A program made the translations under genes and the position numbers. The notes beneath the pieces are model-generated. The model did not search any database, was not told the DNA's origin, and saw only the letters and a list, made by a program, of their open reading frames with translations. DNA of 64,000 nucleotides from a virus. Lineage: Duplodnaviria; Caudoviricetes. Position 1 is the stretch's first letter. Every line of letters begins with the position of its first letter. Of this stretch, positions 10,123 through 37,011 are shown piece after piece. The stretch is taken from IMG/VR virus record IMGVR_UViG_3300036971_000130, one strand, 5' to 3'.

Positions 10123-10982
10123 TACGACCTCGTCACGCTGTCGATGCCGTCGAAGAACATCTTGGCGAACCAGCGAACAGGTCGGAGAGACGACCTGAAG
10201 GCCCGCTCCTTCCACATGTCTCGGCGGTTCTGCTTGGCCTGCTTCTCAGCTTCGATGTTCCGCTCCCGGAACGCCCGGTCCTGGTCCACTAGCTTCTGCT
10301 CGTTCACCTGGTGGCGTTCGAGGTGCCGCTGCATCGCTTCGACAGCGTTCGAGTCGATGTAGGGGTCGCCGTAGTCGTCGACGCTCGTGACGATGTACCC
10401 GCTCCATCCAGCGGCCCTGGCCTTGTTGTGGAGGTCGATGATGCCGGGGAGGTTCCGGGCTGGGACCATCTGCGACTTCCGAGGCGAGTCGATCAACTGG
10501 TCCGGGTTGTTGTCCTCGATGTGGTGAAGGGACCGGATGATGTAGTCCCGGTTCTCGTCACCTCGGTCGTAGAAGTCGTCGTCAGCGAGAGGTCGGACCG
10601 GGAACCCGTCCTCAGGCTCGACCAGCGGAGCCCTCTGCTCCATGTCGGCCAGCAGTGCTTCTCTCGCTCGGTCCGCCCGAGCCCAGTCGGGTTCGTTCGG
10701 GTAGTCGTCTGCGGTGATGTCGCTGACACCATCCCAGAGGTCTCCTTCTGGTGCGGAGCGATCCAGCCACTCCCCGAACTCGGGGTCGTCCATGAGGATG
10801 TCGTCGTAGTTGTCGTCGTCGTCGTCGGTGAGGTCGCTGGTGAGGTCGAGTTCGGGTCCTCGACCGAAGTCCGTCCTGTCGAACCGGCCACGGTCTCGGT
10901 TCTGGCTGTGGCTGTGATGAGCGTCGCCGTGATGGCGGCTACCATCCTGCGGAGGTCGGAACGAGGGGGAGAATCCAGGCAT
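10122..10982 (-). CDS. Acidic hypothetical protein with N-terminal RDRGRF...DL tag; probably leaderless
   Basis: 286 aa ORF; CCAATAGTT sits 5 nt before the ATG and there is no RBS. Confidence 0.7.
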   Translation of the reverse strand: MPGFSPSFRPPQDGSRHHGDAHHSHSQNRDRGRFDRTDFGRGPELDLTSDLTDDDDDNYDDILMDDPEFGEWLDRSAPEGDLWDGVSDITADDYPNEPDWARADRAREALLADMEQRAPLVEPEDGFPVRPLADDDFYDRGDENRDYIIRSLHHIEDNNPDQLIDSPRKSQMVPARNLPGIIDLHNKARAAGWSGYIVTSVDDYGDPYIDSNAVEAMQRHLERHQVNEQKLVDQDRAFRERNIEAEKQAKQNRRDMWKERAFRSSLRPVRWFAKMFFDGIDSVTRS

Positions 10983-11065
10983 ACTCCAACTATTGGCGGC
11001 TGGCTGGTCAACCCGCCACCCATGATGATCTGGAAGTACTCACCCGAATAGGACATTCCACCCAA

Positions 11066-11536
11066 ATGCTCAACCGCATGAAAACCGAGACACACGAAGA
11101 AATCTCCCGTCGATGGTTCCCCGAGGGAACGTTCGTTCGGTCGGATGGTGGCGTCTTCTTCAGCCCTGTCGTCGGTGGCCGTTGGGAGGTCCACCTGAAT
11201 GATGGGACCTACATCCTCTACGACAGCGTGGGACGCTTCTCGACAGCCCCGTGCCCCATCTCAGGCATCTACCCGATCGTCTCGAAGCTCGAAGCTCGGA
11301 TGGTCCACTGCTCCGGTCTGAACCTCGAAGACTACGACCTCGCTGTCCTGCCGTCGGGGGTTATCGACCTCAACATCGAGATGGTGAACGGCAACGTCGA
11401 TCTCCTGGCGATGGTCTCGAAGCATGACAGGTCGGTCGAGACCATCGGTCTGTTCGGTACCTACCAGGGGGCGGTCTCACTCGCCAGCCTCGTCGGCTAC
11501 AGTCGAGACGACTGGGAAGGCGTCCTCGTATCGTGA
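11066..11536 (+). CDS. Hypothetical protein
   Basis: 156 aa ORF with globular composition; GTGA coupling to the next ORF. Confidence 0.6.
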   Translation: MLNRMKTETHEEISRRWFPEGTFVRSDGGVFFSPVVGGRWEVHLNDGTYILYDSVGRFSTAPCPISGIYPIVSKLEARMVHCSGLNLEDYDLAVLPSGVIDLNIEMVNGNVDLLAMVSKHDRSVETIGLFGTYQGAVSLASLVGYSRDDWEGVLVS

Positions 11537-11829
11537 GCGACAACGAAGTGGAAGTCGAAGCGAGCCAAGCCGATCTCGAAACGATGCTGGTGCAGAACCG
11601 GCCGTTGAGGATCGAGGCGATCGACAGATCAACCATGTTCGTTGTCGGCTCCGAGCCGAACTCGTCCCACTGCTACCGAGAGGTCGACGGCCAGGTTGTC
11701 TGGTCCGCCAACATCAGCGGACGAGATCACAGCAGGCAGTTGGCTGCGTTGTTCGACGTGTTCACGTCCCGGCCTGTCGTGTTCTGGTCCTTCGACCCGT
11801 CGAGGACTTTTTCCTTCGGACGACCCTGA
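11533..11829 (+). CDS. Hypothetical protein
   Basis: 98 aa ORF, translationally coupled to the upstream gene. Confidence 0.55.
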   Translation: MSDNEVEVEASQADLETMLVQNRPLRIEAIDRSTMFVVGSEPNSSHCYREVDGQVVWSANISGRDHSRQLAALFDVFTSRPVVFWSFDPSRTFSFGRP

Positions 11830-11842
11830 TCCTCCACGTCGT

Positions 11843-11864
11843 TGTCAGCCCCCTCCGGTAAGGT
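11843..11864 (+). promoter_or_regulatory. PafBC/RecA-NDp-type promoter, TGTCAG-N10-TAAGGT
   Basis: Exact spacing match to TGTC[AG]G-N10-TAnnnT. It precedes a 43-aa ORF (11899-12030) and the ORF at 12042. Confidence 0.65.
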
Positions 11865-12041
11865 GGCGGCAACAACTACGGATGAGGGGATCATCACCAT
11901 GAGAGAGCGTTGCTCTGTCTTTTTCAACACCAAGATCATGTACGAGTACCACCCGGTGATCGTGCGCCAACGTCGTCGGGCCCGTCTGGCTGCGGCGGCG
12001 ATGATCGCTTCCAAGTCAACGAGCGTGTAGTATGGGTGGGT

Positions 12042-12344: not shown

Positions 12345-12383
12345 CCTCTACCGATCCGTCAGTCGACGGGCTACGCTGAGGAC

Positions 12384-12812: not shown

Positions 12813-12815
12813 CGG

Positions 12816-13334
12816 TCAGTGGTCAAGCCAATCGGGAACCATCTCACTCGGCCCCCAACCGATGAAGGAAGGCTCGTTCTGAACGTCCCACCATTCGAGA
12901 GCGTCGTACGGGGTGAAGACCCGGTCCGGCTCACCGACCTTGGATGGGAACGGAACCGGGTACGCCCGCATCCGACGCTTGTCTTCTTCGGTGAGAATGT
13001 CCTCGTGACGAAGCATCATCTCGCATCGAGCAAGCATCCGGGCTTCCTCGGAGATGATGTTGTCCGGACCACCGAGGCGTGCGGTGACCACGTCGATCAC
13101 GTCGTCGGGAACATCGACCGTGGTCCAGAACCCGACGTATTCCTCCACCGACCGGAAGTGGGGAGGGTAGACGAAACTCCCCTTCTCGACCGGCATCCGG
13201 AGGTTGTCCATCGGCTCGTGGTAGTTGGCGGTGAACTGACCGCCCTGGGGTGTTCCTGCCGCCAGACGGGCACGTCGAGCGCCAGGGGTCGTCGCCTCCC
13301 GGACGAACCGGGCAAACTTCTGTCCAAAGTTCAC
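12816..13334 (-). CDS. Hypothetical protein with N-terminal RLAAGTPQGGQF..H..NL tag
   Basis: 172 aa; GTGA coupling to the upstream gene. Confidence 0.65.
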   Translation of the reverse strand: MNFGQKFARFVREATTPGARRARLAAGTPQGGQFTANYHEPMDNLRMPVEKGSFVYPPHFRSVEEYVGFWTTVDVPDDVIDVVTARLGGPDNIISEEARMLARCEMMLRHEDILTEEDKRRMRAYPVPFPSKVGEPDRVFTPYDALEWWDVQNEPSFIGWGPSEMVPDWLDH

Positions 13335-14440: not shown

Positions 14441-14524
14441 ACCTCGCTCCTTCTTGTAGTCGGGTGGCTGCTACCTTGAAACTGTGACTTCGATGGACCC
14501 TCCATGGTCGGAAAGTCCGTTTGG

Positions 14525-15160: not shown

Positions 15161-15161
15161 G

Positions 15162-18100
15162 TCAGCTTCCTGTCGTTGACCAGTGCCAAGACTCGCTCGG
15201 CAGGTTCTTCAGTCCGTACTTGGCTGCGTTCTGAGCCAGCCACTTGTAGCAGGCGGTTGCCCGAGTCGAGCAGTTCGCCCAGTCGATCGCAAGACCCTTC
15301 TGGTGCTGGGACTGTCCCGGCTTGGCAGTCGGGGGACGGCACGAACCGGACGGCATCTCGTAGATGGCGTACTGGGACGTACCGCAGTGCTTCTTGCGGA
15401 GTTCGATCTGGAGGGTGACGGACCGGTAGGAGTTACCGACAGCCATCGGCACACCGTCAGCGGCAGCGTCAGCGATCAACTGGTTGATGATCGGCACCAT
15501 CTGGCAGTTCGTCTCTGCGTTGCCGATCGGGCAGACAGCGACCGGAGCACCAGAGTCGATGTTCACGATCATCCCGTCGCCTCCACCGCTCACCGAGCAG
15601 TCGGTCGCCGGAGTGGCGGGGAGCCCGGTTGCGAGCCCCTTCAGGAACTCGGCATACACCTTGTAGCCCTCAACGGTGTAGTGGATGCCGTCATCGGCCC
15701 GCTTGCCCTCCATCGAGGTCTTCGCAGCGGCGTCCCAGTCGGCCACCTTCAGGTTCGGGTAGGTGCTCGTCGCTTCGGTCAGGGCGGCGTTGACCCCGTC
15801 CTTGGCGGCACCGAGCTTCGTGGAGCCGGTGTCGACGTTCACCCACTGGACCTGCTTGGTCGTGCCGACCATGTCCATGACCGACTTGATCTTGGCGGCG
15901 AAGTCTTCCTTCGTGCTCGTGTAGTCGTTCGTGCCGAGAGCGATGATGATGGCGTCGGAGTTCGGAGCTTCCTTCGTCACGATCTCCGGGGCCTCCGAAG
16001 TCGGACGACCGACCTTGGCGTCGACCGTCCACTCGCTCGGCAGCCCGGCGGTCTTCGCTCCATCGGTGAGAGAGTCACCGATGAGAAGGACTCGGGCGGG
16101 AGTTGCAGGGGTGCCTGCGACCGTCGTGGTCGTGGCCTCACCGCCAGTCGTCGTTGCACCGGCGGCAGTCGTGGTGGTAGCTCCTGCGGCCGTCGTCGTG
16201 GTAGCCCCGGACCCGGACGTGTCACTCGGAGTGCCGTTCGGGAGAGGACTGCTGTCGGAGTCGATGATGGGGAACCAGCCGACAGGGGTCGACTGGGTCA
16301 CGCCGTAGGTGGCGTTGCTCTCCTTGATGGTGGCGAGGATCGCCGCAGCATCCGGGATGGCCTCGGCGTACTTCCCAGGGTAGGCGGAGACCTGAACGTC
16401 CTGAGCGGCAACACCCGGCTCCATCGCCTCCCAACCAGCGTGATCGAGAAGACCAGGAGGGTTGCCCTTGTTCGGTCCGGTCGGACCACCGTAGAACGCC
16501 CTCGACGAGTAGATGGCGTCACCGACCTGCTCCTTGGTGCCCCATCCAGATGCGGGACGCTGCTGGAACAGACCAACCGAGTCGTGGTCGACAGCGACCT
16601 GACCGTTCAGGAGGTTGAGTTCGACGATGGCCGTCGCCAGAGCGATGATCTGTCCACGCTCGGGGACACCCATCGACTTGCCGACATCGACGATAAGGAC
16701 GGCGTTCGCCCAACGCTGCTGGGTCAGCGGGATGTTGTGCCCCTTGTAGGCGAGGATGTCACCGATCTTCAGCGGACCGCTCGTGGGAAGCGGGATGCCG
16801 GAGACACCGCTCTGCGAACCCGAACCACACGCTGGGGTCTGGTTCATCCATGCGAGCGCCGTGTTGTAGATGGTTCCGGCAACGATGTCGGAGTTCTGTC
16901 CGTCCGAGAGGCCCTTCAGTGGGAGAGCCTTGATGACGGCGAGCCAGCCCTCCTTCTCCATCTCGAAGGAACCATCGGGGCCGAACTTCTGCTCGACCTT
17001 GATGGCGTTGATCTGGCGTGCGACGTAGACCGTCGAGTCGTACGGCTTCTGGACATCGACCTCAGCCTTGTCGCTGATCGCCTTCTGTTCCTCGACGTAT
17101 GTGTTCCAAGCTTCTTCTTCGACCAGCATCATCCCGTACCACGGACCACCCTGGACCTTGATGTCCTGCTGGGTGGTGGTGGTCACCGGAGCGGTCGTCG
17201 TGGTTGCGACCGTCGTGGTCGTGTCACCTCGAACCGTGATCGGAGTTTCCGTCGTCGACGTTGCACCTTCAGCGGTGGTGGTCGTCGTCATCGACTCCGA
17301 AGCGACGTTGGTCGGGGCCATGTTCGAGATCGGCGTGTCATCCACGATCGGCGGGTCGGTGATCGGGAAGACATCGCCGTCGTGGGGGACTTCGGTGGTC
17401 GTGGTTGCGCCTTCGGGCTCGACGAACTCCACGGTCGTTGCCGTGGCGAGAGGGTGATCCTTCTCGTAGTCGTCGGGGTTGTAGTCGTTGGCGTAGTCCT
17501 CCATCATCTTGCCGTCGGCGTCGTACGGCCAGATGCGGACCTTGCCGTCTGGGGCAGCCATTCCGTGGTTGGTCTCGTACCGTCCGATGGCGGCGAGGAT
17601 CTGCCACTGGACATCGTTGTCGTTGCCGATCTGCTGGTACATCATCAGAGCGGAACCGGGCGTTCCATCACGCATGGCGTACTGTCCGGAAGCAACGTCG
17701 TTCTGCGACATCGACATCGACATGCCGCTCACGCTGATCAGGACCATGACCAGCAGGAGCCCGACCATGAGTAGCGGAGACAGGAGAGCGAGAGCGGGCT
17801 TGATGAACTCCTTCAGGCCCTTCTTCGCCGCACCTCCGATGCCGTCCTTCTTCATCGACTTGGCGAACTTCTTGCCGCCCTTGATGCCGGAGGCAACCAG
17901 GCGAGCGGGCGGTGGGGCAGCCTTCGAAACGGCGTCGAGGCCCTTGTCTGCGGCAGCTTCAGCGCCACCCTTCTTCGCTGCACCGGCAGCGGCACCGGCT
18001 GCACCTGCGGCAGCGGCCTTGCCTCCCGACTTCCCGCCCTTCTTGTCCTTGCCTGAGCGGTCGGGCGTCTCAACGCCCTTCTTGTCGTCCTTCTTGTCCT

Positions 18101-18560
18101 TGCCGATGCTGGTGAGCGCACTCGTGCCCTTGGCTGAGTCCTTCTTGTCGTCGGAGGACTCGCCGGACTTCTTCCCCTTCTTCCCGCTGCCGGTGGCGGA
18201 GACCTCGGCCTCCCCTCCACCTTCGGCTCCGGTCTCGTTGCCGTGCTCAGGAGGGTTCTCGTCGCTGTGGTCACCACTGTCGCTGTCGTCGTCGGCTTCG
18301 ACACCACGAAGTGCGGCGCTCTTGCGCTCACGTTCCTTGGCCGTCATCGTGCGACCACGACCGGACTTCGACCAGTCACGGGACGGACCACGACGGGGGA
18401 CAGCCGGGGTTTCCGGTTCGGGAGTTGGCTCCGGGGTCTGATCCTCGGAGGTCTTCTCCGGTGTCCGGTCCTCGGGCTTCTCGACAGGATCGCCCGAAGG
18501 CTGAGGACGATCCTGGTCCTCAGCCTTCTGGTCTTCTGGCTTCTCGTTCATCTCACTCAT
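15162..18560 (-). CDS. Multidomain conjugative cell-wall hydrolase: two lysozyme/transglycosylase-like domains, SGNH domain, M15 D,D-peptidase
   Basis: True start is ATG 18560 (MSEMNEK), in ATGA overlap with the VirB6-like stop. TM helix; WQILAAIGRYETNHG; IALATAIVE...DSVGLFQQRP..GWG...VQVSAYP; IGDSL/ALGTND/DGIH; SYRS...PGQSQHQKGLAID...ESWHW. Confidence 0.85.
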   Translation of the reverse strand: MSEMNEKPEDQKAEDQDRPQPSGDPVEKPEDRTPEKTSEDQTPEPTPEPETPAVPRRGPSRDWSKSGRGRTMTAKERERKSAALRGVEADDDSDSGDHSDENPPEHGNETGAEGGGEAEVSATGSGKKGKKSGESSDDKKDSAKGTSALTSIGKDKKDDKKGVETPDRSGKDKKGGKSGGKAAAAGAAGAAAGAAKKGGAEAAADKGLDAVSKAAPPPARLVASGIKGGKKFAKSMKKDGIGGAAKKGLKEFIKPALALLSPLLMVGLLLVMVLISVSGMSMSMSQNDVASGQYAMRDGTPGSALMMYQQIGNDNDVQWQILAAIGRYETNHGMAAPDGKVRIWPYDADGKMMEDYANDYNPDDYEKDHPLATATTVEFVEPEGATTTTEVPHDGDVFPITDPPIVDDTPISNMAPTNVASESMTTTTTAEGATSTTETPITVRGDTTTTVATTTTAPVTTTTQQDIKVQGGPWYGMMLVEEEAWNTYVEEQKAISDKAEVDVQKPYDSTVYVARQINAIKVEQKFGPDGSFEMEKEGWLAVIKALPLKGLSDGQNSDIVAGTIYNTALAWMNQTPACGSGSQSGVSGIPLPTSGPLKIGDILAYKGHNIPLTQQRWANAVLIVDVGKSMGVPERGQIIALATAIVELNLLNGQVAVDHDSVGLFQQRPASGWGTKEQVGDAIYSSRAFYGGPTGPNKGNPPGLLDHAGWEAMEPGVAAQDVQVSAYPGKYAEAIPDAAAILATIKESNATYGVTQSTPVGWFPIIDSDSSPLPNGTPSDTSGSGATTTTAAGATTTTAAGATTTGGEATTTTVAGTPATPARVLLIGDSLTDGAKTAGLPSEWTVDAKVGRPTSEAPEIVTKEAPNSDAIIIALGTNDYTSTKEDFAAKIKSVMDMVGTTKQVQWVNVDTGSTKLGAAKDGVNAALTEATSTYPNLKVADWDAAAKTSMEGKRADDGIHYTVEGYKVYAEFLKGLATGLPATPATDCSVSGGGDGMIVNIDSGAPVAVCPIGNAETNCQMVPIINQLIADAAADGVPMAVGNSYRSVTLQIELRKKHCGTSQYAIYEMPSGSCRPPTAKPGQSQHQKGLAIDWANCSTRATACYKWLAQNAAKYGLKNLPSESWHWSTTGS

Positions 18561-22194: not shown

Positions 22195-22261
22195 GTCTTG
22201 GCCCTCCTAGGCTGTCTACTGAGAAACTGTGACTTCCCCCATCACCCCATGGTGAAATAGG

Positions 22262-22705
22262 TCAGGATGCCCGGACGAGCATCTCCATCTCCCGAACTTC
22301 GGGATCGCTGAGAATCCTCTCCCGCTGCTCATTGGAGAGCGGGAAGCGGAGAAGATGACGAAGAACGATCGGGGACGAATCGCCAGCGAGCAGGTCGTTG
22401 ATCTTCGGATCGCCACGATCGGCAAGCTCGAAACGGACCATCGGAGACGGGTCGTCGACAAGGCGACGGGCCTGCTCGTCCGACAGGACGGGGTTCGTTG
22501 CAGCGGTCGCCCGAACGTGCTCGCTCGGGTGGTTGACGAACTCGTCGAGCGACTGGCTGTCGTTGCAGTTGAACGCAGCCTCGATCGCCTCGTCGTCGAG
22601 GGCGACCGGGTCACGGCTGATCTTCGGGTCGCCGCCGGTCCCGTACTGGGAAGGACCGAACGTGCCGTTGCCGAAGCGGATCTGGCTGGTGTTGTCGTTG
22701 CTCAT
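22262..22705 (-). CDS. LRV/HEAT-like repeat protein with N-terminal RFGNGTF tag
   Basis: ATG 22705; repeats HPSEHVRATAATNP, DPSPMVRFELA, DSSPIVLRHLL. Confidence 0.65.
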   Translation of the reverse strand: MSNDNTSQIRFGNGTFGPSQYGTGGDPKISRDPVALDDEAIEAAFNCNDSQSLDEFVNHPSEHVRATAATNPVLSDEQARRLVDDPSPMVRFELADRGDPKINDLLAGDSSPIVLRHLLRFPLSNEQRERILSDPEVREMEMLVRAS

Positions 22706-22715: not shown

Positions 22716-24071
22716 TCACGCCGAGACCTTCGTCCGGGTTCGAGGGGCGGTTGCAGCGAGGATCGCCGCATCCCAGGTTTCGTCCTCACGTCCGGGAACG
22801 AACATGATGGTCTGCATGATCTTGCGCTGGTCCTCGTAGGTCCCAGCGTCACTGAACGGGGCGAACAGCGCCCGGACCGTCCGGTCGCTTGCCGTCTCGT
22901 CGCTCCACTGACGCCACGCCTCCGCTACTCCACCGACATCAGCGATTGCCTTGCGGTGAGCGGTTGCACTGGTCGTCGAGAACTGCTCGTCACCGGACTT
23001 GACCTGGCTTGCGCCGGTCTCACGACGGAGGATCGACCAGAGTTGACGCTTGATCATGCTCTTGTCGCCACCAGCGAGAGCCTCGGCAGCGCCATGGTCG
23101 AAGGTGCTGAAGGTCGTTCCGGCCTCCATCGGAGAACTGGAACCGGTGAAGCTCGGGGCGGCGATGTCGATGCCGGGGCTGTCCTCGTCACCGCCAGCGT
23201 CGAGGGACAGCGTCCCACGCTTGATCTGCTGGATCGAGTGGAAGCCGATCGTCGGACGGCGGGTTGCAGCGAAGCCCATCCGGATCTCATCCGCGATCTC
23301 GTCACGGCGGGCTGCCGAGACAGGACCACGACGGCCTTCTTCTTCGACTCGCTCGGACCACATGCGGTAGGCGTTGCGGTTCACCGACTGATCGGTGCCC
23401 GTGATGGCCTGACGAGCGACGTTGTCGACGATCGTGTTGATGTTCGGAGCGGCAGAGGTGAGGATGCCTCCCGGAGCGATGACACCTTCGTCATCGACCA
23501 GGCGGCTCTCGCCGTCCACCATCCGGCGACCGTTGGCTCCACGGACACGCTCGACGAAGCGAGACTGGGTGTTGCGCCAGGTCGTCAGGAACTCGCTGGT
23601 GGCAGCGTTCACGAGGTCTTCGTGGCTGTCGAAGTGCTGTGCGAGGGAGTCACGGGACCGCTTGAAGTTGAGACCTGCACGGAGGTTCAGCGTCTTCAGG
23701 ACGACCGCCTCGTCGTAGGAGCCGACGCCGTAGGCATCGAGGATCTCCTGGTCGGTAGCGGTCTCCGGGTCGATCGTGGCGAGTTCGTTCGAGCGGTCGG
23801 GAACGAACTTCTCGCCCTTGGCTTCAGCGGCACGCCGAGCACGGCGCTCACGCATTCGGGCGAGACGATCCTCAGGGATGACGACTTCCTCGAACACGGG
23901 AGCAGGAACAGGAGGGTTGTCCTCCTGCCACTCGGAGATGTCCGCTCGGATGTTGCGCTCGAACATGGCGTCGATGTCGACCAGGTCAGTGGTAGCACCG
24001 AACCCACGATCGCGAACGGAGAACTCTCCGACAACGTTCCGAGGGTGGCGTGCTTCATCCCAGGTCTTCAT
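22716..24071 (-). CDS. Hypothetical, possibly divergent sigma-70-like protein, with N-terminal WDEARHPRNVVGEF tag
   Basis: ATG 24071 follows CCAATAGTT-N5. HEDLVNAA is region 2.2-like and LSLDAGGDED is region 3.2-like. Confidence 0.6.
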   Translation of the reverse strand: MKTWDEARHPRNVVGEFSVRDRGFGATTDLVDIDAMFERNIRADISEWQEDNPPVPAPVFEEVVIPEDRLARMRERRARRAAEAKGEKFVPDRSNELATIDPETATDQEILDAYGVGSYDEAVVLKTLNLRAGLNFKRSRDSLAQHFDSHEDLVNAATSEFLTTWRNTQSRFVERVRGANGRRMVDGESRLVDDEGVIAPGGILTSAAPNINTIVDNVARQAITGTDQSVNRNAYRMWSERVEEEGRRGPVSAARRDEIADEIRMGFAATRRPTIGFHSIQQIKRGTLSLDAGGDEDSPGIDIAAPSFTGSSSPMEAGTTFSTFDHGAAEALAGGDKSMIKRQLWSILRRETGASQVKSGDEQFSTTSATAHRKAIADVGGVAEAWRQWSDETASDRTVRALFAPFSDAGTYEDQRKIMQTIMFVPGREDETWDAAILAATAPRTRTKVSA

Positions 24072-24104
24072 ACCTGAACTATTGGTGGCGAAAGCGGGCA
24101 TCTG

Positions 24105-27100
24105 TCAACTCCTGCGAAGGGTGGCGGCGAAGTTCAGTGCAGCCGCTCCGGGAACTTCGTCAGCCCGGACGATCCAGGTCCGACGATGAATGTCAGAACG
24201 GGTGCTCTCCCGCATGATCGGGACTCCGTCATAGACCAGAGCTTTCGTCTCCGACATCATCGACTCGTCGTTCAGGCGGTCGAAGCGACTGCCGGTCAGA
24301 TGGTCGATGTTGTCGAGCGGAGTCTCGATCTCCGGTCTCGTACGACAGAGTACATTGCGAGCGCCGTCGAGCCAGTCATCGGTACCCGTAACCGAAGCTT
24401 CCACGATGATCTCGTCCACCTGGCCGGGCGACCACGGGAACTCGTAAACGGCTTCGGACATCTCGATGAACTCCGACACCGTCCAGCGTCCGACCATGCC
24501 GGACCTGTCCGGCGGACGCACCGTGCCGGTGAGGGAAGGGGCTTCCATCGTGGCGACAGATCCACCGTCATCGGGCTTCGTCCCACCACCTCCGACCTCG
24601 AAGTTCGAGACGATCTGATCGAAGATCGCATCCACGTCCTCGGTCTCTGGTCCAAGTGCGATCGGTTCGTCTTCAGGTGCCGGAACCGGGTCGTCTTCCG
24701 GCTCTGGTTCCTGAGGTTCTGTGGGTTCAGTCGGCGCAGACGGAGGACCGTCGAAAATCGACATCTGACCCATCCGTGGATCGTCGTCAGGACGATCGAA
24801 GATGAACTCGGGAACCTCGAAGCTGTCACGGAACGACGTGTCCTTCAGAGACAGGACTTCGAGATCGTCGAGGGTCAGTTCCGGACGTTCGTCTGCCGGT
24901 TCGACGTGCTCGACACCACTGCTGTCGTCATCATCGAGAGCGTCAGGCGGAGGTGGAGCCTGACGGACCTTACGGAGACCTCGGACGATCACGACATCAC
25001 CGACGCTCGGGATGTTGCCCTGAGCGGTGAGGCGATCCATCGTACGGCTCCATGCCACGCCACGGATGTAGGTGCTCGAACCTTCCAGGATGTAGGACGC
25101 ACGGCGACCCCAGTGTCCGGACTTCTCAGCCCACGAAGCGAGGACGCCAACGGTGACGACGGTCTGCTTCGTGGTCTCGGCCACGACCCGAGAGATCGGT
25201 TGAGGCTTGATCCCTGACAGACCGACGGACTTCAGTTCGTCGGTGTGGTGCGTCAGCGGCGAAGCCGACAGGAGAACACCCAACAGCTTCCGCTCACGAC
25301 GGGCCTGCTCCACGTAGGACCAGGACATCAGCGGAACGTCGTCCTCGGCGTAGGCGACGATGCCTGCGGTCGCCAGCAGGAACATCAGCGACTTCCGGGC
25401 AGGCGTACCATCGGGGAGCTTCGGAGCGAACTCGTCCATTGCCCCTGACTCGATGAGCTTCGGGATCTCGCCTCGGCCGACTCGCATCTCCGGCGGGAGG
25501 CCGGGGTCGAAGCACCGTGAGCAGAGATCATCGAAGGACGTGAACAACCCTCCACGGTCACGTTCAGCTACGAGACGATGCATCTCGGAAGCGTTGGCAC
25601 CTTTGATCTCCGAGAGGCCGAACGAGACCTCGTTGCTGGCGTTGACCGAGGTCTTCACCAGGCTTCCGTTCACCGACGGGAGCACGACGGCGACACCTTC
25701 CTCACGCATGGCGGTGAGCATCGACAGTCGGCGTTCGTTGTCCTTCGTCGACATGAGCAGACCAGCGGCGTACGCCTCCGGCCAGTTCGCCTTCAGGTAG
25801 GCGGTCATGTACGAGAGAGTTCCGTACGAGAACGAGTGGGCCTTGTTGAACGAGTATTCACCGGCCGACTTCATCGTGTCCCAGAGCCGCTCGGCGGTCT
25901 CGTAGTGGAACGCTGGCTTCACGAGGTTGCCATCCTCGTCCCGGATCTCCTGCTGGGCACCTTCGACGAACTGGGTGCCGACCTTCGCAAGTTCGTCGGC
26001 GTTCTTCTTCGAGACCGCCTTCCGAAGCTTGTTCGTGCCGACCGGGTCGAAGCCTCCGACCTTGGCGGCAATCGACATCATCTGCTCCTGGTACACGCAG
26101 TTGTGGACCACGACGCCGTTGGCGATGAAGTTGTGGATGCCCGCAACCGTGATGTCGTAGACCCTCTCGATGCCTCCGGTTGCGATCTCGGGGACCTCGA
26201 TCCACCGGATGCCGCCGGGTTCGGATGCCGAATCGAGGAACGAGATCAGGAATGCGTTCTCGTTGTTCGGCATCGGCCTCACCTGGCTCTGGATGCCGAG
26301 ACGCAGAGCGAGGAACTGGATCTGCTCGACGATCGTGGGCGACACCGTGAACAGTGGCCTCCCACTGGCGATGATCTGGCTGACCAACGCTCGAACGATC
26401 TCGTCGTCCGCCGACATGAACTCCTGGGGGATCGCCTCGTCGACGAACCACGAGTCTTCGGCCAGCGTGACACCGATGCCCCTGGCGTTCACGATCGAAA
26501 CCAGATTGTCTCGCTGGTGCTCGACATCAGGGTTGAGGTACCGGCTCGGTTCGGCAACGAGGTCACCGGAGACGAGATCGCCTGCTGCGATCCACCCTCG
26601 GTTCGTCAGAACCTTGTGGTCCGGCGTGGCTCGCAACGTCTGACCGTTCGAGAAGGAGAGCTTCATCACTTGGCGATCGCCGTTGTCCATGAAGTGCGTG
26701 ATCTGCCCGGATGCCAGGTTGTTGTCCTCGTCGACGCCCTGAACCACCTCACCGACTTCAGCCTCGTCGATGTTGATGAGGTGGCCTCTCGTCACCGAGT
26801 AGATGCGAGTGTCCCCGGTCACGCAGACGCCGTAGGTGTCAGCGAAGACCGACTCGATGATCTCGTTCTCGACCTCGGCGTTCTGTGAGGTGCGGGTGTA
26901 CATGCCGTAGTCGACAGCCTCACGGCCGTGCTTGCGCTCCACGTACCTCGTGTGCATGTTGGCACCGAGTGGGCCAGGTCGGTACAGGGCGAGTAGAGCG
27001 GAGAGGTCGTTGAGGCTCGTCGGGCGCATGTCTACGGTGAGAGCCGTCATGCCCTGGGACTCCAACTGGAAGACGCCGGAGGTCTTGCCTTCACCGAGCA

Positions 27101-29111
27101 GCTTCCATGTCTTGCGGATTCGCTGACGATCGACTTCGGTCAGGTTCGGGTCGTCGAGATCGGTCGGGAGGAAGTCCGGGTCGATGTCTTCGCCGGTGGT
27201 CTCCTTGATGACGTTCACGCAGGATGCGACCACGTCGAGGTTCCGGAGGCTGAGGGCGTCGATCTTCATGTAGTCGGCGGCGCTGATGTCGACAGCGTCG
27301 TTCTGAAGAACCGGGACATCCGAGGTCGCCGTGTAGCGCCGGGGAAGGTCGCCTTCCATGCTCACATCGGAGACGACGATGCCGCAGGCGTGGATGCCCT
27401 CCTTGTCGATGAGATCCTCGAACTCCAACGCCAATGACACGACCGCCTGGTAGGCGACGTTCTTGTCCTTGCGGGACAGGAAGTCCGAGGCGAGGGTCTT
27501 GATCTTCTCGCTGGCGCTCTCGTCGGTCGCCATGTGGAGGGGGAGCGGCTTGCCGCCTGGGAGCATCGGGATCGAACGGGAGAGTTCGTCTCCGATATCG
27601 GTCTCATCGAGGACCGACGCTGCGGCCTTCAGAGCGCCCTTGGACTTCAGCGTTCCGAGGTTGCCGATTCGAGCGACCCGGTCGTAGCCCCATCGCTGAG
27701 CGAGGTAGACGAACACCTCGTTGCGTCGGCCGGTCTCGAAGTCGATGTCGATGTCGGGCATCTCCATGCGGTCGATAGAGAGGAACCTTTCGAACAGGAG
27801 GCCGTTCGAGATCGGCTCGACGTTGACGATGCCGAGGCAGTAGGAGATCGCACATCCGGCAGCGGAGCCTCGTCCGGGGCCGACTCGGATGCCGACCGAA
27901 CGTGCCCACTCGATCATGTCCTGCACGATCAGGAAGTAGTCACCGAGGCCCTTCGTGTCGATGATCCCGAACTCGAAGCTGATCCGGTCCTGGACGACCT
28001 TGTCGATCTTGCCGCTGGCACCGTAGCGCCACCAAGCTCCGGCGATGATCTGGTCCCACAGGTAGGCCGAGGAACCTTCGAGGCCCTTCGCCTTCGCCAT
28101 GGCGGACGGAGTCCAGTCTGCTGGCGGGTCGAACTTCGGCAGACGGATGCGCTTCTCACGGACCCCGATGACATCGTCGTCAGTGACCATCTCAGCGATC
28201 TTCAGGGAGTTCACGACGGCGAGTTCTGTGCCGGGCTGGTTGTTGAACAGCGCCCGCATCTCGGCCGGGGTGCGGAGGTGGTAGCCCTCACCCTGGAACT
28301 TGAACCGACGATCGTCGCTGATCTGCGACTTCGTCGAGTGGCAGAGCCACGCTTCGTGACCGTCGGCGTTCTCGGCTTCGACGTAGTGGGCGTCGTTGGT
28401 GGCGACGACTTCGAGCCCGAACTTCTTGGCGAGTTCGACGAGCCCGCCGATGACCTTCTTCTCGGCAGCGATGCTGTGGTCCATGACTTCGACGAAGACC
28501 CGGTCCCGTCCGAAGGCCCCGACCAACTGGGCGAGGTTCCTCTCGGCGGTCTTCATGTCGCCCTGCAAGATCGGACCGGCGACCGGACCACCGAGGCAGC
28601 CGGTGAGGCAGATCAGCCCGTCTTGGAGGGAGCACAGGAGGTCGAGGTCGATCCTGGGCTTGTACCAGGTTGCCGCTTCCCGGTTCGCTGCATTGTTCAG
28701 CCGGACGAGGTTCTCCCATCCGGTGCGGTTGTAGGCGAACACGGTGATGTGCTGGTACCGCTTGTGCTTGGTCTTGCCGGTCGCATCGCCGGAGGCCGAC
28801 GAGTCGAGGTCGATGTCGTTGATGCCGACGATGATCGAGTCACGGTCGAACCGGCTGCCGATCGACAGGTAGAACTCGCAGCCGATGATCGGCTTCACGC
28901 CCTTGTCGAGACATGCCTCGATGAACTTCCGGCAGCCGGAGAGTGTCCCGTGGTCGGAGATCCCCACAGCGGGCGAGTCGTCCCCGTCGGCCAGACCGTT
29001 GCGGAAGGCTGCTCCGGCGAGGGCTTTGATCCGGGCGGCTCCGTCGAGAACGCTGTGGGAGGTGTGGTTGTGCAGTGAGACCCATCCAGGTCGGAGGATC
29101 TCAACGGTCAT
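24105..29111 (-). CDS. dnaE: DNA polymerase III alpha subunit with one intein and a long acidic C-terminal extension
   Basis: PHP motifs HNHTSHS/SDHG/TNDAHY; GPGRGSAAG; FERFL..R..MPDIDIDF; GIHACG; GVFQLES; YRPGP; YSFNKAH. Confidence 0.97.
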   Translation of the reverse strand: MTVEILRPGWVSLHNHTSHSVLDGAARIKALAGAAFRNGLADGDDSPAVGISDHGTLSGCRKFIEACLDKGVKPIIGCEFYLSIGSRFDRDSIIVGINDIDLDSSASGDATGKTKHKRYQHITVFAYNRTGWENLVRLNNAANREAATWYKPRIDLDLLCSLQDGLICLTGCLGGPVAGPILQGDMKTAERNLAQLVGAFGRDRVFVEVMDHSIAAEKKVIGGLVELAKKFGLEVVATNDAHYVEAENADGHEAWLCHSTKSQISDDRRFKFQGEGYHLRTPAEMRALFNNQPGTELAVVNSLKIAEMVTDDDVIGVREKRIRLPKFDPPADWTPSAMAKAKGLEGSSAYLWDQIIAGAWWRYGASGKIDKVVQDRISFEFGIIDTKGLGDYFLIVQDMIEWARSVGIRVGPGRGSAAGCAISYCLGIVNVEPISNGLLFERFLSIDRMEMPDIDIDFETGRRNEVFVYLAQRWGYDRVARIGNLGTLKSKGALKAAASVLDETDIGDELSRSIPMLPGGKPLPLHMATDESASEKIKTLASDFLSRKDKNVAYQAVVSLALEFEDLIDKEGIHACGIVVSDVSMEGDLPRRYTATSDVPVLQNDAVDISAADYMKIDALSLRNLDVVASCVNVIKETTGEDIDPDFLPTDLDDPNLTEVDRQRIRKTWKLLGEGKTSGVFQLESQGMTALTVDMRPTSLNDLSALLALYRPGPLGANMHTRYVERKHGREAVDYGMYTRTSQNAEVENEIIESVFADTYGVCVTGDTRIYSVTRGHLINIDEAEVGEVVQGVDEDNNLASGQITHFMDNGDRQVMKLSFSNGQTLRATPDHKVLTNRGWIAAGDLVSGDLVAEPSRYLNPDVEHQRDNLVSIVNARGIGVTLAEDSWFVDEAIPQEFMSADDEIVRALVSQIIASGRPLFTVSPTIVEQIQFLALRLGIQSQVRPMPNNENAFLISFLDSASEPGGIRWIEVPEIATGGIERVYDITVAGIHNFIANGVVVHNCVYQEQMMSIAAKVGGFDPVGTNKLRKAVSKKNADELAKVGTQFVEGAQQEIRDEDGNLVKPAFHYETAERLWDTMKSAGEYSFNKAHSFSYGTLSYMTAYLKANWPEAYAAGLLMSTKDNERRLSMLTAMREEGVAVVLPSVNGSLVKTSVNASNEVSFGLSEIKGANASEMHRLVAERDRGGLFTSFDDLCSRCFDPGLPPEMRVGRGEIPKLIESGAMDEFAPKLPDGTPARKSLMFLLATAGIVAYAEDDVPLMSWSYVEQARRERKLLGVLLSASPLTHHTDELKSVGLSGIKPQPISRVVAETTKQTVVTVGVLASWAEKSGHWGRRASYILEGSSTYIRGVAWSRTMDRLTAQGNIPSVGDVVIVRGLRKVRQAPPPPDALDDDDSSGVEHVEPADERPELTLDDLEVLSLKDTSFRDSFEVPEFIFDRPDDDPRMGQMSIFDGPPSAPTEPTEPQEPEPEDDPVPAPEDEPIALGPETEDVDAIFDQIVSNFEVGGGGTKPDDGGSVATMEAPSLTGTVRPPDRSGMVGRWTVSEFIEMSEAVYEFPWSPGQVDEIIVEASVTGTDDWLDGARNVLCRTRPEIETPLDNIDHLTGSRFDRLNDESMMSETKALVYDGVPIMRESTRSDIHRRTWIVRADEVPGAAALNFAATLRRS
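26100..26825 (-). mobile_element. Class 1 intein in DnaE (242 aa, endonuclease degenerate)
   Basis: TYGV|CVTGDT...ATPDHKV...VYDITV...VVHN|CVYQEQ; interrupts the conserved TYGx-xYQEQ segment. Confidence 0.93.
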
Positions 29112-29279: not shown

Positions 29280-29481
29280 AGAGGGGTAGGGGGGTAAATT
29301 ATAGACATATGTATGGGTTTTCTTGTACACCTACTACTACCTACCCCTCTACCTACTCCATACAACCTACGTTCTCCCAGGTCAGAGTGGAGATCGCTGT
29401 TCTTCGCCGGATTCCAAGAATCGCCTGTTCAGACCGCAGATCCGGCACTTATCCACAGACTTGTCCACAACCTTATCCACA
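29280..29481. promoter_or_regulatory. oriC-like region: AT-rich core, 11-bp inverted repeat, DnaA-trio-like repeats, three tandem DnaA boxes
   Basis: TTATCCACA 29449, TTGTCCACA 29461 and TTATCCACA 29473; TTGTACACC-TACTACTAC 29323-29340; IR AGAGGGGTAGG 29280-29290 / CCTACCCCTCT 29340-29350. Confidence 0.7.
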
Positions 29482-31636: not shown

Positions 31637-32191
31637 TCAGTCCATGAAGGCTTCGAGATCACGAAGCCAGCACTGCACCGGAGCGATCCACAGCGTGCCG
31701 AGACGGCCATGCGTCAATTCGACGACCCGGAGTTCACGGGGCACGTCGTTCTTCTTGTCCTTCAGCCAGTCGAGGGCTGCGGTGAACTTCGCCGTGGTGA
31801 AGGTCTCCGTGGTCGATCGGTTCCCGACGTTCGGGTCCGGCCACTCGTAGGAAGCCGCCAGCCAGCGGACGGTGACACCGTCGTCGAGCACCTTGCGTGA
31901 GTTCGGGAGCGGCACCATCGCAGCGCCCCAGAGAGCCCCGGCGTTGAGCCTCTGGCGCTCAGCGCCATCGGACCCCTGACGGATGCCGGACGTGACGTTC
32001 TTCCACGCCTTCACCTGGACCACGGTGTCACGAAGGATGCGTACATCCCCCATGTCCTCCTTGCGGCCAGCGCCGAGTTCACGCATCCGCACGCCGGACT
32101 TCAGCATGTGCTCGGGAGCGATCTCCAACAGGACAGCGACAGCTTCCCGCTCGAACGCATCGCCCTTGTTCTTGTTGGCGTTCCTACCCAT
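31637..32191 (-). CDS. PD-(D/E)XK Holliday junction resolvase-like nuclease
   Basis: NKNKGDAFERE...EDMGD...VVQVK pattern of Hjc/phage-type resolvases. Confidence 0.75.
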   Translation of the reverse strand: MGRNANKNKGDAFEREAVAVLLEIAPEHMLKSGVRMRELGAGRKEDMGDVRILRDTVVQVKAWKNVTSGIRQGSDGAERQRLNAGALWGAAMVPLPNSRKVLDDGVTVRWLAASYEWPDPNVGNRSTTETFTTAKFTAALDWLKDKKNDVPRELRVVELTHGRLGTLWIAPVQCWLRDLEAFMD

Positions 32192-32702
32192 TGGGTTTCT
32201 TCCTGTAGATCGAGAGGGAGAAGGAGCCGCCTGACGGCCCCTTCCTGGCCTTCACCGGGTCACCGTAGGTGATCGTCTCGTACTGGTACTGCTTCTCTGA
32301 CAGCGACCACGAGACCTTCCGTGGCTGGTCAGGAGGGAAGTACGACCGACGACGACGTTCGAGACGCCAGCGGTAGGTTCGGGTTGGCACCCACGCCGAC
32401 TTGCGCCCGTTGTGCGACTTGCAGAGGTACTGCAAGTTCTGCATCGAGGTTGCTCCGCCCTTCGACCACGGGTAGACGTGATCGGCTTCTTCGGCACCTC
32501 CACGGCACCGGAACCAGAACGGATGCTTGTGCTCGCAGCGGTCACCGCACCGTCTACGGCCGAGCTTGCGTTGCTCGTCGTCGTAGAACCTCTGCGGGTC
32601 CTTGTTGACCTGCCCTCCACGCTTCGATGCGACGAGTCCGAGGACGACGAGGACAACCAGTCCAGCGACGATCCAAGGCCAGTGGGTGAGGGCGGCGTCC
32701 AT
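32184..32702 (-). CDS. HNH endonuclease with N-terminal TM helix
   Basis: CE..C...ADHVYPWSKGGAT...NLQYLCKSHN.RK; residues 8-25 hydrophobic. Confidence 0.85.
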   Translation of the reverse strand: MDAALTHWPWIVAGLVVLVVLGLVASKRGGQVNKDPQRFYDDEQRKLGRRRCGDRCEHKHPFWFRCRGGAEEADHVYPWSKGGATSMQNLQYLCKSHNGRKSAWVPTRTYRWRLERRRRSYFPPDQPRKVSWSLSEKQYQYETITYGDPVKARKGPSGGSFSLSIYRKKPNG

Positions 32703-33385
32703 TATCCACAGGCTACTGTGGACGACCAGTTCATGCGAACAGCACCAGTGTTCGATGCGTAGCGGACCGAGTAGCTACCAGGCGAGACGCCGAAGTCCTT
32801 GGAGATGGAACCGCCAGCGGACTCGTTGATGTTCACGCCCGGCCCGGAGACGGACAGGCTGACCGTGCCATCACCGGAGACGTTCAAGCTCAACGACCCG
32901 GAGCCGGAGCAGGTGATCGTCTGAGTCTTCGACACGCCGCTCTGCGGTCTCGTGGTGACCACCGGCGGCTGCGTGGTGACGACAGGTGGGTCGGTGACCA
33001 CCGGAGGATCGGTCCTCGGAGTGGTGACCACCGGCGGATCAGTGGTCGGAACGGTCTCGGGTGACGTGGTGATGACCGGAGCTTCGGTGGTGGTCGTGGA
33101 CTCCACCGGTTCCTCAACGGTCGTCGTGGTTTCCTTCGGCTTCCCGGTCGTCGACGTGGTCGTAGGCGGCGTCGTGTTCGTGGTCTCCGTGGCCTTCGAC
33201 GTGGTCGTCGAACCGTTCGCCACAGCGGGGGTCTTCTTGCCGCCCTGACCGATCGCCAGGAAGCCACCTACCCCGAGCACCACGATGACCGTGAGGACGG
33301 CAACGACGAGCTTCAGGGGTACGCCGAACCTCCACCGGAAGGTGGAGCCCATCGACCTCTCGAACTCGATCTTGTTGCCGTCCAT
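32702..33385 (-). CDS. Membrane-anchored Thr/Pro-rich surface protein with small C-terminal beta domain
   Basis: ATG 33385 with RBS GAGAGGA; TM helix, TDPPVVT repeats, two Cys. Confidence 0.65.
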   Translation of the reverse strand: MDGNKIEFERSMGSTFRWRFGVPLKLVVAVLTVIVVLGVGGFLAIGQGGKKTPAVANGSTTTSKATETTNTTPPTTTSTTGKPKETTTTVEEPVESTTTTEAPVITTSPETVPTTDPPVVTTPRTDPPVVTDPPVVTTQPPVVTTRPQSGVSKTQTITCSGSGSLSLNVSGDGTVSLSVSGPGVNINESAGGSISKDFGVSPGSYSVRYASNTGAVRMNWSSTVACG

Positions 33386-34758: not shown

Positions 34759-34811
34759 GGTCACCATCATGGGTCGGGAAGCGGACGAAATCGTACCCCA
34801 TCGTGTGACAT

Positions 34812-35264
34812 GTGTGTACACTCCCCTTCGTGGAAAAATGGGATGTCAGATACCGAGCCCTGATCGAGTACGTGGAGCGTGAGGGCCTGATCCCGTCCGC
34901 CCGCCGAGATCAGCGGATGGGCTCATGGGTGGCCGAGCAGAAGCGACGGCTCCGGAAGGGGATCATGCCCACCGAGCAGCGTGAGCTTCTCGAAGCCATC
35001 GACGGTTGGTACTGGGACAACGAGGATCTCCATGCCAGGGCTGGGTACAGTTCGCTCTGGAAGCGCAACTACGACAACCTGCTCACCTACATGGCCGAGA
35101 ACAGCCGGTACCCTTCGCAGTTGAATGCGGATCGCTCGATCAGCAAGCTCGGCTCCTGGGTGTCCAGGCAGCGTCAGACGTACCGTGGGGACAAGAAGTC
35201 ACGCCCCCTCACGGCTCGACAGATCGAGATGCTCGAACGCCTCCCCCAGTGGAACTGGGGTTAG
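34812..35264 (+). CDS. Stand-alone tandem helicase-associated (HA) domain protein
   Basis: Two W...Y..L..Y....G..P.....G.WV..Q....R.......R...LE.I..W.W repeats. Confidence 0.8.
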   Translation: MCTLPFVEKWDVRYRALIEYVEREGLIPSARRDQRMGSWVAEQKRRLRKGIMPTEQRELLEAIDGWYWDNEDLHARAGYSSLWKRNYDNLLTYMAENSRYPSQLNADRSISKLGSWVSRQRQTYRGDKKSRPLTARQIEMLERLPQWNWG

Positions 35265-36820
35265 CGCCGGTACCCGAGGATGTTCTCCAAGGCGATCGCA
35301 CGACCTTCGGCGTTGGCGTCGTAGGTCTGGCTGCTTCGGTCCACGTCGTAGCCAGGCCGGATCGGGTTGTAGAGCAGGTCGCTCGGTTCCCTCTTGTCAG
35401 CGATCGCTTCAGCGGCGCTGACGTACCCGGCGACGTAGGCGGAGAGTTCAGATCCGGTCTTGTCGGTCGGCGGGATCGTGGTGCCTGCGAGAGCAGGGTG
35501 CGTCGAATGGGTCTCGGCCTTCCACCTGTCCGGGTGGTTGGTGGCGAGCGCCACGGGGCCAGAGGGTCGGGTGTACGGCTTGTTGGCTGTCCGGGCCTGG
35601 TGTGATCCGGCGATCGCCCTCGTCATCTGATCGACCGCTTCGACCGTCTTGCGTCGAGGGTTGTACGGGGACAGTGTCCTGACCGAAGCCGAGATCCTCT
35701 TGTTCGTGTCGAGCAGGACATCGAAAGCTTCGTCGTAGCTGCTCGTGGCGAGAGCCGGGTCCCTGATGATCTCGTCAGCGAAGCCGCCGAATCCCGCTCC
35801 CCACTTCCGGATGGTCCTGTGGGGGATGCCGGTCTCGCCGTGGATGTGGGCGACATCCTCGGGGCTGAGAGGGGTGCCGAGGTAGTAGCTCCCGTCCGAG
35901 AACGAACGCCCCTCCACGATGGTCGACCCGTACACGCCTTCGGGGGCGTGGTCAGCGAACAGGACGGCGATGGCCGTTCGACGACTCAGGTACACGGTGA
36001 GGTTGGGGTCCGACTCGGTCTCGAAGGTCTCGGAGGAAACGAGGCCACGGAGACCAGCGTCCGAGATGAGAGGTGGCACGGTGTCGAAGTGGTCTTCCAG
36101 GAGAGCGATGCGCTGGTTCCGACCGACGAGGTGTACCCTTTCCAGAATGCTGCCAGGCATCGGCGTTCCCGTGCCTTCCCTGCTGATCGCTCTGACGAGA
36201 TCCGATGCGACATCGTCGTTCGGTGAGATGCCGTACTCCCTGGCCTGGTCAGCGAGACGGGGGTTCGCCCCGAGTTCCTTCCAGCGAAGCGCCTCACCCA
36301 GTGGGTACCCGGAGTCGGTCCACTTCCGTTCCTCGGTGACCGGAATCCCGGCCATGAGCCATTCGAGGGACCGGTCGCATTCGGACGTGATGAGTTCGCT
36401 GTCACGCCACCCGTCGGGGAACACCGCTTCCTCGTAGGAGATGAGCAGGTCGTCCTCCCCCATCAGGCCATCCTCGGTCGAGTAGCCAGACCAGACGACC
36501 TGACCGTCGGCATCGAGAACGTAGGCCAGGTGGTCCGCTCCGTCGGGAACGTGATCGCCGTAGTCGAATGGCCTCGTCGAGATCGTGAGGGACGAGACCC
36601 AAACCGCTTCCTCCGGGTCGAAGTGGGACGGCGAGACCAGGTCGTAGACGTTGGCCTCGGTGTCGGAGTCGAAGACCGCCCCATCGAGTTCGTTCAGCCG
36701 CTCATCACGGATGGTCGAAACAGACGAGAGGTCGATGTCCGCCCCGAAGTTGTGGACGAAGCTGGTCCACCTGCCGAGACGATCACGGGGGCCGGAGCCA
36801 GGGGGCATTGTTGAGGTCAT
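35261..36820 (-). CDS. Hypothetical protein with N-terminal PRDRLGRW..H..G.DIDL tag; probably leaderless
   Basis: 519 aa; CCAATAGTT-N5-ATG; WxxxG helical repeats mid-protein. Confidence 0.7.
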   Translation of the reverse strand: MTSTMPPGSGPRDRLGRWTSFVHNFGADIDLSSVSTIRDERLNELDGAVFDSDTEANVYDLVSPSHFDPEEAVWVSSLTISTRPFDYGDHVPDGADHLAYVLDADGQVVWSGYSTEDGLMGEDDLLISYEEAVFPDGWRDSELITSECDRSLEWLMAGIPVTEERKWTDSGYPLGEALRWKELGANPRLADQAREYGISPNDDVASDLVRAISREGTGTPMPGSILERVHLVGRNQRIALLEDHFDTVPPLISDAGLRGLVSSETFETESDPNLTVYLSRRTAIAVLFADHAPEGVYGSTIVEGRSFSDGSYYLGTPLSPEDVAHIHGETGIPHRTIRKWGAGFGGFADEIIRDPALATSSYDEAFDVLLDTNKRISASVRTLSPYNPRRKTVEAVDQMTRAIAGSHQARTANKPYTRPSGPVALATNHPDRWKAETHSTHPALAGTTIPPTDKTGSELSAYVAGYVSAAEAIADKREPSDLLYNPIRPGYDVDRSSQTYDANAEGRAIALENILGYRR

Positions 36821-37011
36821 GCTCTAACTATTGGCGGGGAGCGTACCGATTTGCGTGCAGGTCGAACTGGGCCTGCACGTCGGTCGCTGCCTTGGCGTGG
36901 ATGTCCCATCGTCCGCAGGTACACTCCCCGTAGGTGGCCCCTGCCCGCTGCTTCAGGTTGTGCTCGACCGGCTTCTTGGCTGTGGTGGCTGTCGTCATCT
37001 CTCCGTCTTTC

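Follow-up and report, generated by a model that had tools for sequence, protein, structure and literature searches.

A box repeated 5 nt before three start codons of a conjugative mega-element is probably the -10 region of a leaderless promoter

Three open reading frames (ORFs) in the 64,000-nucleotide stretch of IMG/VR virus record IMGVR_UViG_3300036971_000130 (Duplodnaviria; Caudoviricetes; this whole stretch is hereafter called the window) begin 5 nt after an identical short box and share a peptide signature near their N-termini, which raises the question of what the box does and whether it is dedicated to proteins carrying this tag. An initial annotation of the sequence had proposed a leaderless promoter with a non-canonical -10 element, read by a sigma factor or activator encoded on the element itself. 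The window, whose DNA has a GC content of 61-65%, reads as part of an uncultured, Gram-positive-type conjugative mega-element that is probably actinobacterial. Following up this proposal, we found that the observation is solid and slightly larger than described, that a leaderless promoter appears to be the best available reading of it, and that the dedication of the box to tagged proteins is only partly true.

On the plus strand, AACTATTGG occurs at 10988-10996, 24077-24085 and 36826-36834, and nowhere else on either strand of the window. Read on the minus strand, all three copies take the form CCAATAGTT-N5-ATG, with the ATGs at 10982, 24071 and 36820, so that both the positions and the 5-nt spacing given by the initial annotation are correct. 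Its view that chance is an unlikely source of this recurrence also stands, as dinucleotide-preserving shuffles gave an expectation of 0.01 matches to AACTATTGG against the three observed; for AATAGTT-N5-ATG, three matches compare with 0.20 expected. When the copies are aligned in one register, the full conserved block extends over 12 nt, CCNCC-AATAGTT, from -17 to -6, and the C-rich lead-in remarked upon earlier belongs to this longer block. The pattern CCNCCNATAGT has four matches in the window (0.11 expected), the fourth being CCTCCGATAGTT on the plus strand, in the 187-nt intergenic gap before a class II ribonucleotide reductase (RNR) gene and 47 nt before its ATG at 54743. This copy keeps CCNCC and the T at -6, and carries G in place of A at -12 (GATAGT). 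The core ATAGTT is found only five times on both strands of the window (128 kb), always co-oriented with the next gene and outside the ORFs taken as genes, either at gene starts or in the RNR gap; the exception is copy 2, whose ATAGTT falls inside a longer alternative ORF (22716-24101, 461 aa). Sequences flanking the box are unrelated between copies, so its identity does not come from recent duplication. RNA folding of the four copies yielded z-scores of -0.1 to +1.7, none better than shuffled sequence and with no conserved fold, and Rfam has no match in the window.

Clear Shine-Dalgarno sequences are present at many genes within 1-44242, where the minus strand holds most genes, and their absence at the three box-headed ATGs is therefore a real contrast. 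As had been noted, none is usably spaced: at copy 1, a GGAG reaches to within 1 nt of ATG 10982, too close to serve as a Shine-Dalgarno sequence. Frame plots of GC content at third codon positions (GC3) support coding in the frame of each of the three ATGs, and ATG 10982 is both the first start past an in-frame stop and the sole in-frame start codon upstream of the peptide signature. The two-gene units proposed earlier fit as well, with one downstream partner joined through a GTG/TAG overlap at 10122 and the other starting at ATG 22705, 10 nt past the previous TGA (Table 1). Copy 2 sits 20 nt past the stop codon of the PolIII alpha gene. A further in-frame ATG at 24101, 30 nt upstream of ATG 24071 and 3 nt past the PolIII alpha stop, is preceded by AGGAG at a distance of 7 nt; the form adopted in public gene calls is that of 451 aa, and the gene arrangement suggests that this protein may be made in two ways, as a 461-aa form from a polycistronic mRNA and as a 451-aa leaderless form.

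We consider it probable that CCNCC-(A/G)ATAGTT is the -10 region of a sigma-70-type promoter giving leaderless mRNAs. AATAGT would occupy -12 to -7, with T at -6 and then five variable bases after it, and transcription from the A of the ATG would produce leaderless mRNAs for the units 10982+10122, 24071+22705 and 36820; at the fourth copy, the same box would give the RNR mRNA a 47-nt leader. In one register, the hexamer keeps A at -11 and T at -7 (AATAGT in three copies, GATAGT in one). It stands exactly 6 nt from the A of the ATG in three copies, which makes +1 an A, and position -1 is a pyrimidine throughout (T, T and C in copies 1-3, C in the fourth). Copy 1 is located in an 83-bp divergent gap (10983-11065; a plus-strand ORF begins at 11066), which needs a promoter there. 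Together with the lack of Shine-Dalgarno sequences, these features lend partial support to the original proposal; the box resembles a variant of a more general CC-xATxxT pattern described below and not a signal entirely of its own kind. Promoter activity, transcription start sites (TSSs) and co-regulation are what we infer from these sequence features.

The distances to the start codons also bear on a different explanation, in which the box is an mRNA start-associated translation signal, similar to the start-associated sequence (SAS) of mycobacteriophages, and recruits ribosomes or a factor to an ATG without a Shine-Dalgarno sequence on polycistronic transcripts. A fixed and very short distance to the start codon, a single orientation and the use of ATG and not GTG are all SAS features (PMC3203893), as is the upstream stop codon within the motif at copy 3 (PMC3203893), and copies 2 and 3 do lie inside co-directional arrays. 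The box, however, has neither a Shine-Dalgarno core nor complementarity to the usual anti-Shine-Dalgarno sequence, copy 1 has no upstream co-directional gene, and no RNA structure is conserved. The fourth copy, at 47 nt from its start codon, favours a transcription signal over a translation signal. Taken together, this makes a role in translation distinctly improbable.

Three simpler accounts of the conserved letters were rejected. A common -35 element fails because the spacers to the nnGACn hexamers differ, at 11, 19 and 27 nt in copies 1-3. A palindromic operator fails because CCAA-TAG-TTGG is present in copy 1 only and the palindrome is not conserved. TAG as a shared stop codon is true of copy 3 only, where a 56-aa ORF (36828-36998) ends at the TAG within the box and a second TAG, in the spacer, is in frame with ORF 3, 3 nt before ATG 36820.

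The promoter reading places the box within a wider class of sites on the element, the ACC-CATGAT boxes. ACCCATGAT occurs five times in the window, including once on the other strand at 11018-11026, 22 bp from copy 1. At 34766, an ACC-CATGAT box is followed by N7 and an in-frame ATG (34758), a leaderless arrangement, and at 9177 such a box precedes a 34-nt leader with AGGAG and then ATG 9142; being used with and without a leader, these boxes behave as promoters. AATAGT and CATGAT boxes both fit CC(-14,-13)-xAT-xx-T(-7): they share CC at -14/-13, xATxxT at -12 to -7, a leaderless distance to the ATG, and both leaderless and leadered uses. They differ in the hexamer, which is AATAGT and not CATGAT, in position -6, which is T and not G, and in position -12, which is C in the commoner boxes. 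By its sequence, the box would thus form a subclass within the general CC-xATxxT promoters (ACC-CATGAT) of the element, and its exact conservation suggests that the genes of this subclass are co-regulated. The closest related element, on contig L003, carries GCCACC-CATAGT-C, a hybrid of the two boxes, directly after a sigma-like gene discussed below. The adjoining DNA of the same contig as the window may hold three to four further CAATAGTT copies and more than 100 ACC-CATGAT-type boxes; these are leads only.

Such letter-perfect conservation might instead point to a regulator and not a sigma factor: the 9- to 12-mer would mainly be bound by a sequence-specific activator or repressor, at a site overlapping a weak promoter, and would resemble the asymmetric 13-bp stoperators of Cluster A mycobacteriophages. 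A -10 element alone seldom needs nine identical bases, and CC-xATxxT promoters tolerate variation (CATGAT, CATAGT, CATATT) whereas the AATAGT subclass is invariant; the box is, moreover, asymmetric and always co-oriented with transcription. We nonetheless regard a mainly regulatory site as unlikely: no candidate regulator was identified, the fixed 5 nt to the ATG in three copies is not required of a regulator site, and the fourth copy has G for A and no association with the tag. A regulator site is in any case compatible with a promoter, not opposed to it.

Several points weigh against the promoter reading. TANNNT promoters strongly conserve T at -12, where three copies of the box have A and the fourth has G, and the four copies share no -35 element. 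ATG 24101 with its AGGAG is a strong alternative start, which would put copy 2 inside coding sequence. Around copies 2 and 3 the genes are tightly packed and co-directional, which makes read-through mRNAs likely too. The RNR gap also holds a recurrent motif, ACCATGG-N15-GTAGAGATAC, which could be the real RNR promoter. The box is not found in the more distant relatives of the element, contigs L004 and L006, and the sample consists of 3+1 sites. Set against these points, no reading other than a promoter fits all four sites. Two of the copies have further upstream sequence in common: before the RNR box, ATGACA (54659-54664) and ATGACAGA align in register with the copy-2 TTGACA (Table 1), and (T/A)TGACAGA at -37 to -30 is common to both.

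We then come to the proteins that the box heads. The signature G-x-[FW]-x(3-8)-FG-x(2-5)-DL lies near the N-terminus of all three and occurs exactly three times in all six frames of the window, at 10889, 24029 and 36775, that is, in the three headed ORFs. As it was derived from these same proteins, its specificity is partly circular and only its absence elsewhere is informative; a simple tag regex, [RK]..G.[FW], was rejected as too loose. Looser forms of the tag are seen in the second gene of unit 1 (N-terminal GQFG...DL), the second gene of unit 2 (GTFG) and ORF 12816-13334 (G-x-F-(G)). The three headed proteins match no Pfam or NCBIfam family. A word search of 5.8 billion proteins found no homologues of headed ORF 2 beyond near-identical copies, and headed ORF 3 has no match in IMG/VR or among metagenome contigs of the Joint Genome Institute (JGI). 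Within the window, the AATAGT form alone heads proteins with G-x-[FW]...FG...DL, which the ACC-CATGAT boxes do not. The RNR protein carries no tag, so the box is not exclusive to tagged proteins: the link between box and tag claimed initially holds one to one for the three leaderless copies and ends at the fourth.

This one-to-one correspondence in the window could in principle be a relic, if box and N-terminal tag descended from one ancestral 5' cassette and the 9-mer were kept by descent without a function. The DNA between and around box and tag is, however, not alignable, and the distance from ATG to signature varies (93, 42 and 45 nt); that all but the box and a few tag residues have diverged argues for selection on the box, and leaves a functionless relic very improbable indeed.

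If the box is a promoter subclass, the element may encode a protein that reads it. The candidate is the product of 37012-37854, the last long gene of an operon with PD-(D/E)XK, ParA-like and DnaJ genes, which by its modelled structure is a divergent sigma-70-fold protein. An AlphaFold2 (AF2) model built from an alignment of HMMER relatives (predicted local distance difference test score, pLDDT, 79) contains helical sigma2 and sigma4 domains in sigma order, and the top 50 Foldseek matches to it were almost entirely sigma factor chains (E ~1e-3). VIA-align matched the model to S. aureus SigB (Z 11.1 over 212 residues) and to the -10 recognition domain of M. tuberculosis SigC (Z 9.9, root-mean-square deviation 2.4, 86 residues), Z values that helical proteins may also attain by chance, so that the weight lies on the dominance of sigma factors in both result lists. 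Sequence searches with this protein gave no Pfam match at E<=10 (Sigma70_r2/r4), no NCBIfam match and no PDB sequence match, and the word search of 5.8 billion proteins gave no homologues beyond near-identical copies. An exhaustive HMMER search revealed a small family of relatives on contigs L003-L006, the L003 protein being 40% identical, and one relative (P0007) has a sub-threshold NCBIfam SigF match (E 0.024). These related contigs share a conserved operon of PD-(D/E)XK, ParA-like, DnaJ and two genes without assigned function, with the sigma-like gene last and DUF3854, TcpC-like and VirB4 genes coming after it. The sigma-like protein could read the CATGAT class of the element's promoters, the AATAGT subclass, both or neither. 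Two other ORFs named alongside it in the initial annotation, 22716..24071 and 53299..54555, show nothing regulator-like. A small ORF similar to the 56-aa, Cys-containing one near copy 3 (Table 1), with a T-C-x-C-x-x-W motif, directly follows the L003 sigma-like gene (L003 1440-1604), and the 56-aa protein may be a partner or anti-sigma of the sigma-like protein.

A bolder view, which we put forward tentatively and hold to be rather unlikely, is that the box and the G-x-[FW]...FG...DL peptide define a "cargo regulon", in which unrelated proteins would be switched on together by the 37012-37854 sigma (perhaps with the 56-aa Cys protein) and addressed by their tag to one destination. This destination could be, for example, a recipient cell reached via a TcpC/VirB4-type secretion system, and the signals for expression and for sorting would then move as one module.

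Table 1. Coordinates of the box copies, the genes they head and associated features in the window.
Feature	Coordinates	Strand	Remarks
Copy 1, box CCGCC-AATAGTT	10988..10999	-	Proposed -10 AATAGT; predicted +1 is the A of ATG 10982
Headed ORF 1	10122..10982	-	286 aa; no known family
Second gene of unit 1	9241..10122	-	GTG shares one base with the TAG stop of ORF 1
Copy 2, box CCACC-AATAGTT	24077..24088	-	Predicted +1 is the A of ATG 24071
TTGACA, consensus -35-like	24103..24108	-	19 nt upstream of copy 2 AATAGT; overlaps the PolIII alpha stop codon
Headed ORF 2	22716..24071	-	451 aa from ATG 24071; 461 aa from ATG 24101
Second gene of unit 2	22262..22705	-	147 aa; called as a gene of 147 aa in contigs L001 and L002
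Copy 3, box CCGCC-AATAGTT	36826..36837	-	Predicted +1 is the A of ATG 36820
Headed ORF 3	35261..36820	-	519 aa; no known family
Fourth copy, leadered, CCTCC-GATAGTT	54679..54690	+	Predicted +1 is the A at 54696
Sigma-70-family protein, divergent (from model)	37012..37854	-	280 aa; 190 nt upstream of copy 3
Cys-containing ORF, 56 aa	36828..36998	-	Between the sigma-like gene and copy 3

Apart from the PolIII alpha gene with its intein (24105-29111, minus strand), the window encodes a DUF3854 protein, a TcpC-like protein, a VirB4-like ATPase with a Hint domain, the class II RNR and helicases. In public records, the 451-aa protein of headed ORF 2 is found on a 233,542-bp contig, and further copies of the element are short JGI metagenome contigs only (1.5-5 kb), among them L001 and L002, two independent and near-identical contigs that both carry the copy-2 box. 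Near-identical contigs are present in JGI samples 3300036957 and 3300036955. One 6.7-kb contig of a metagenome-assembled genome (MAG) labelled "uncultured Gordonia sp." carries a distant relative of the DUF3854 protein and gives a weak hint of a Mycobacteriales host. No CCNATAGTT-N5-RTG is present in this MAG, and the sigma-like family was not convincingly found in 401 genomes of its order. Searches of PLSDB plasmids by megablast gave no relatives of the element, and tblastn with the DUF3854 protein gave very distant matches only. A related box is found in L003 only; L004 and L006 have no box and no obvious CC-xATxxT-N5-8-ATG pattern.

Other proteins of the window belong to the same conjugative setting. 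A surface protein of more than 2,439 aa (1-7320, minus strand), which extends past the window edge, has at least 13 SdrD-B/SpaA/CarboxypepD_reg repeats and a signal-peptide-like N-terminus, and is probably an adhesin of the element. The 1,324-aa product of 15162-19136 (minus strand), which has GDSL-lipase-like and VanY (D-Ala-D-Ala carboxypeptidase) domains at its C-terminus, probably remodels the cell wall as an enzyme of the transfer apparatus; since its long ORF runs into the next one (18557-21367), the start needs revision. Inteins appear to be present in both PolIII alpha, with Intein_splicing and Hint domains at residues 754-1004, and the VirB4-like ATPase (49646-53302, plus strand), which has a weak Hint_2 match at residues 471-504 and a length of 1218 aa compared with 863 aa in its relative on L004.

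Further repeated sequences were seen in the window. The most over-represented 10-mer is TTATCCACAG. Three DnaA-box-like 9-mers (TTATCCACA, TTGTCCACA and TTATCCACA) with 12 bp spacing lie at 29449-29481 (plus strand), about 340 bp upstream of the PolIII alpha start, and a fourth perfect DnaA-like box (32702-32710, plus strand) overlaps the start region of ORF 32184-32702; the cluster may be a replication origin or a DnaA-controlled region of the element. The motif ACCATGG-N15-GTAGAGATAC is found before the ParA-like/sigma operon (~41850-41890, minus strand; GTG 41820) as well as before RNR (54610-54645, plus strand). A second form, ACCATGG-N27 with GAAGTCACAGTTTC inside and then GTAG, occurs at ~22215-22265 and ~14460-14510 (both minus strand), ahead of the ORFs that start at 22194 and 14440. 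Every site of both forms is followed by a leader with a good Shine-Dalgarno sequence, and the motif could be another class of promoter or operator. At 54585-54602 (plus strand), 30 nt past the stop of ORF 53299-54555, CTGGA-CATAGT-TCCAG makes a hairpin whose 5-bp stem encloses a -10-like hexamer; a T-rich run comes next, and the whole looks like a composite of terminator and promoter. A repeat of ~20 nt, TGGACAC(CC)AACCCATGATGG, is located at 56990-57012 and 57586-57605 (plus strand), at the start and end of ORF 56990-57625; the ACCCATGAT box at this ORF thus belongs to a longer repeat and overlaps coding sequence (P-M-M).

A leaderless promoter variant alone would be unsurprising in a high-GC Gram-positive background, and the interest of the box lies in its link to the tag and in the element-encoded candidate sigma. 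Most proteins of the conjugative mega-element have no homologues at all; if the reading is right, the box offers a simple sequence handle on a co-expressed gene set in a very large, uncultured element of actinobacterial type. The one-to-one link in the window lends the peptide independent, DNA-level support as a real functional tag. A mobile element of this kind would also run several leaderless, -10-only promoter subclasses lacking T at -12, possibly with a sigma of its own.

Three known systems offer a comparison. The phage T4 late promoter TATAAATA, read with gp55, is a -10-only promoter served by the sigma factor of a mobile element. Promoters of this type share with the box an invariant 8-9-bp -10 sequence, no requirement for a -35 and a sigma-like protein encoded nearby on the element; in contrast to them, the box keeps A(-11) and T(-7), which a host primary sigma could read, and the 37012-37854 protein is only a candidate reader. 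The SAS and extended SAS (ESAS) of Cluster K mycobacteriophages resemble the box as short asymmetric repeats that precede, by 3-8 bp, the ATG of some non-structural genes, in one orientation, with a strong ATG preference and an upstream stop codon sometimes within the repeat (PMC3203893). The SAS contains an AGGAG Shine-Dalgarno core and is thought to act in translation, a function that is unproven (PMC3203893), whereas CCAATAGTT lacks this core and has -10 features, and the box is not always within a few nt of a start codon, the RNR copy being the case in point. In mapped actinobacterial leaderless promoters, TANNNT lies 7-12 bp ahead of the TSS, a -35 consensus is lacking, and transcription mostly starts at a purine (PMC3898074). 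Compared with those of M. tuberculosis, the box has 9-12 invariant bases where TANNNT has about three, its TSSs being predicted from sequence; it is preceded by CCNCC where the mycobacterial extension is SRN or TGN, and it has A or G at -12 where theirs is T. What it has in common with them (PMC3898074) is the -10-only architecture, A(-11) and T(-7), a distance of 6-7 nt from hexamer to +1, a purine start after a pyrimidine, the lack of a Shine-Dalgarno sequence and a start codon at the predicted 5' end of the mRNA.

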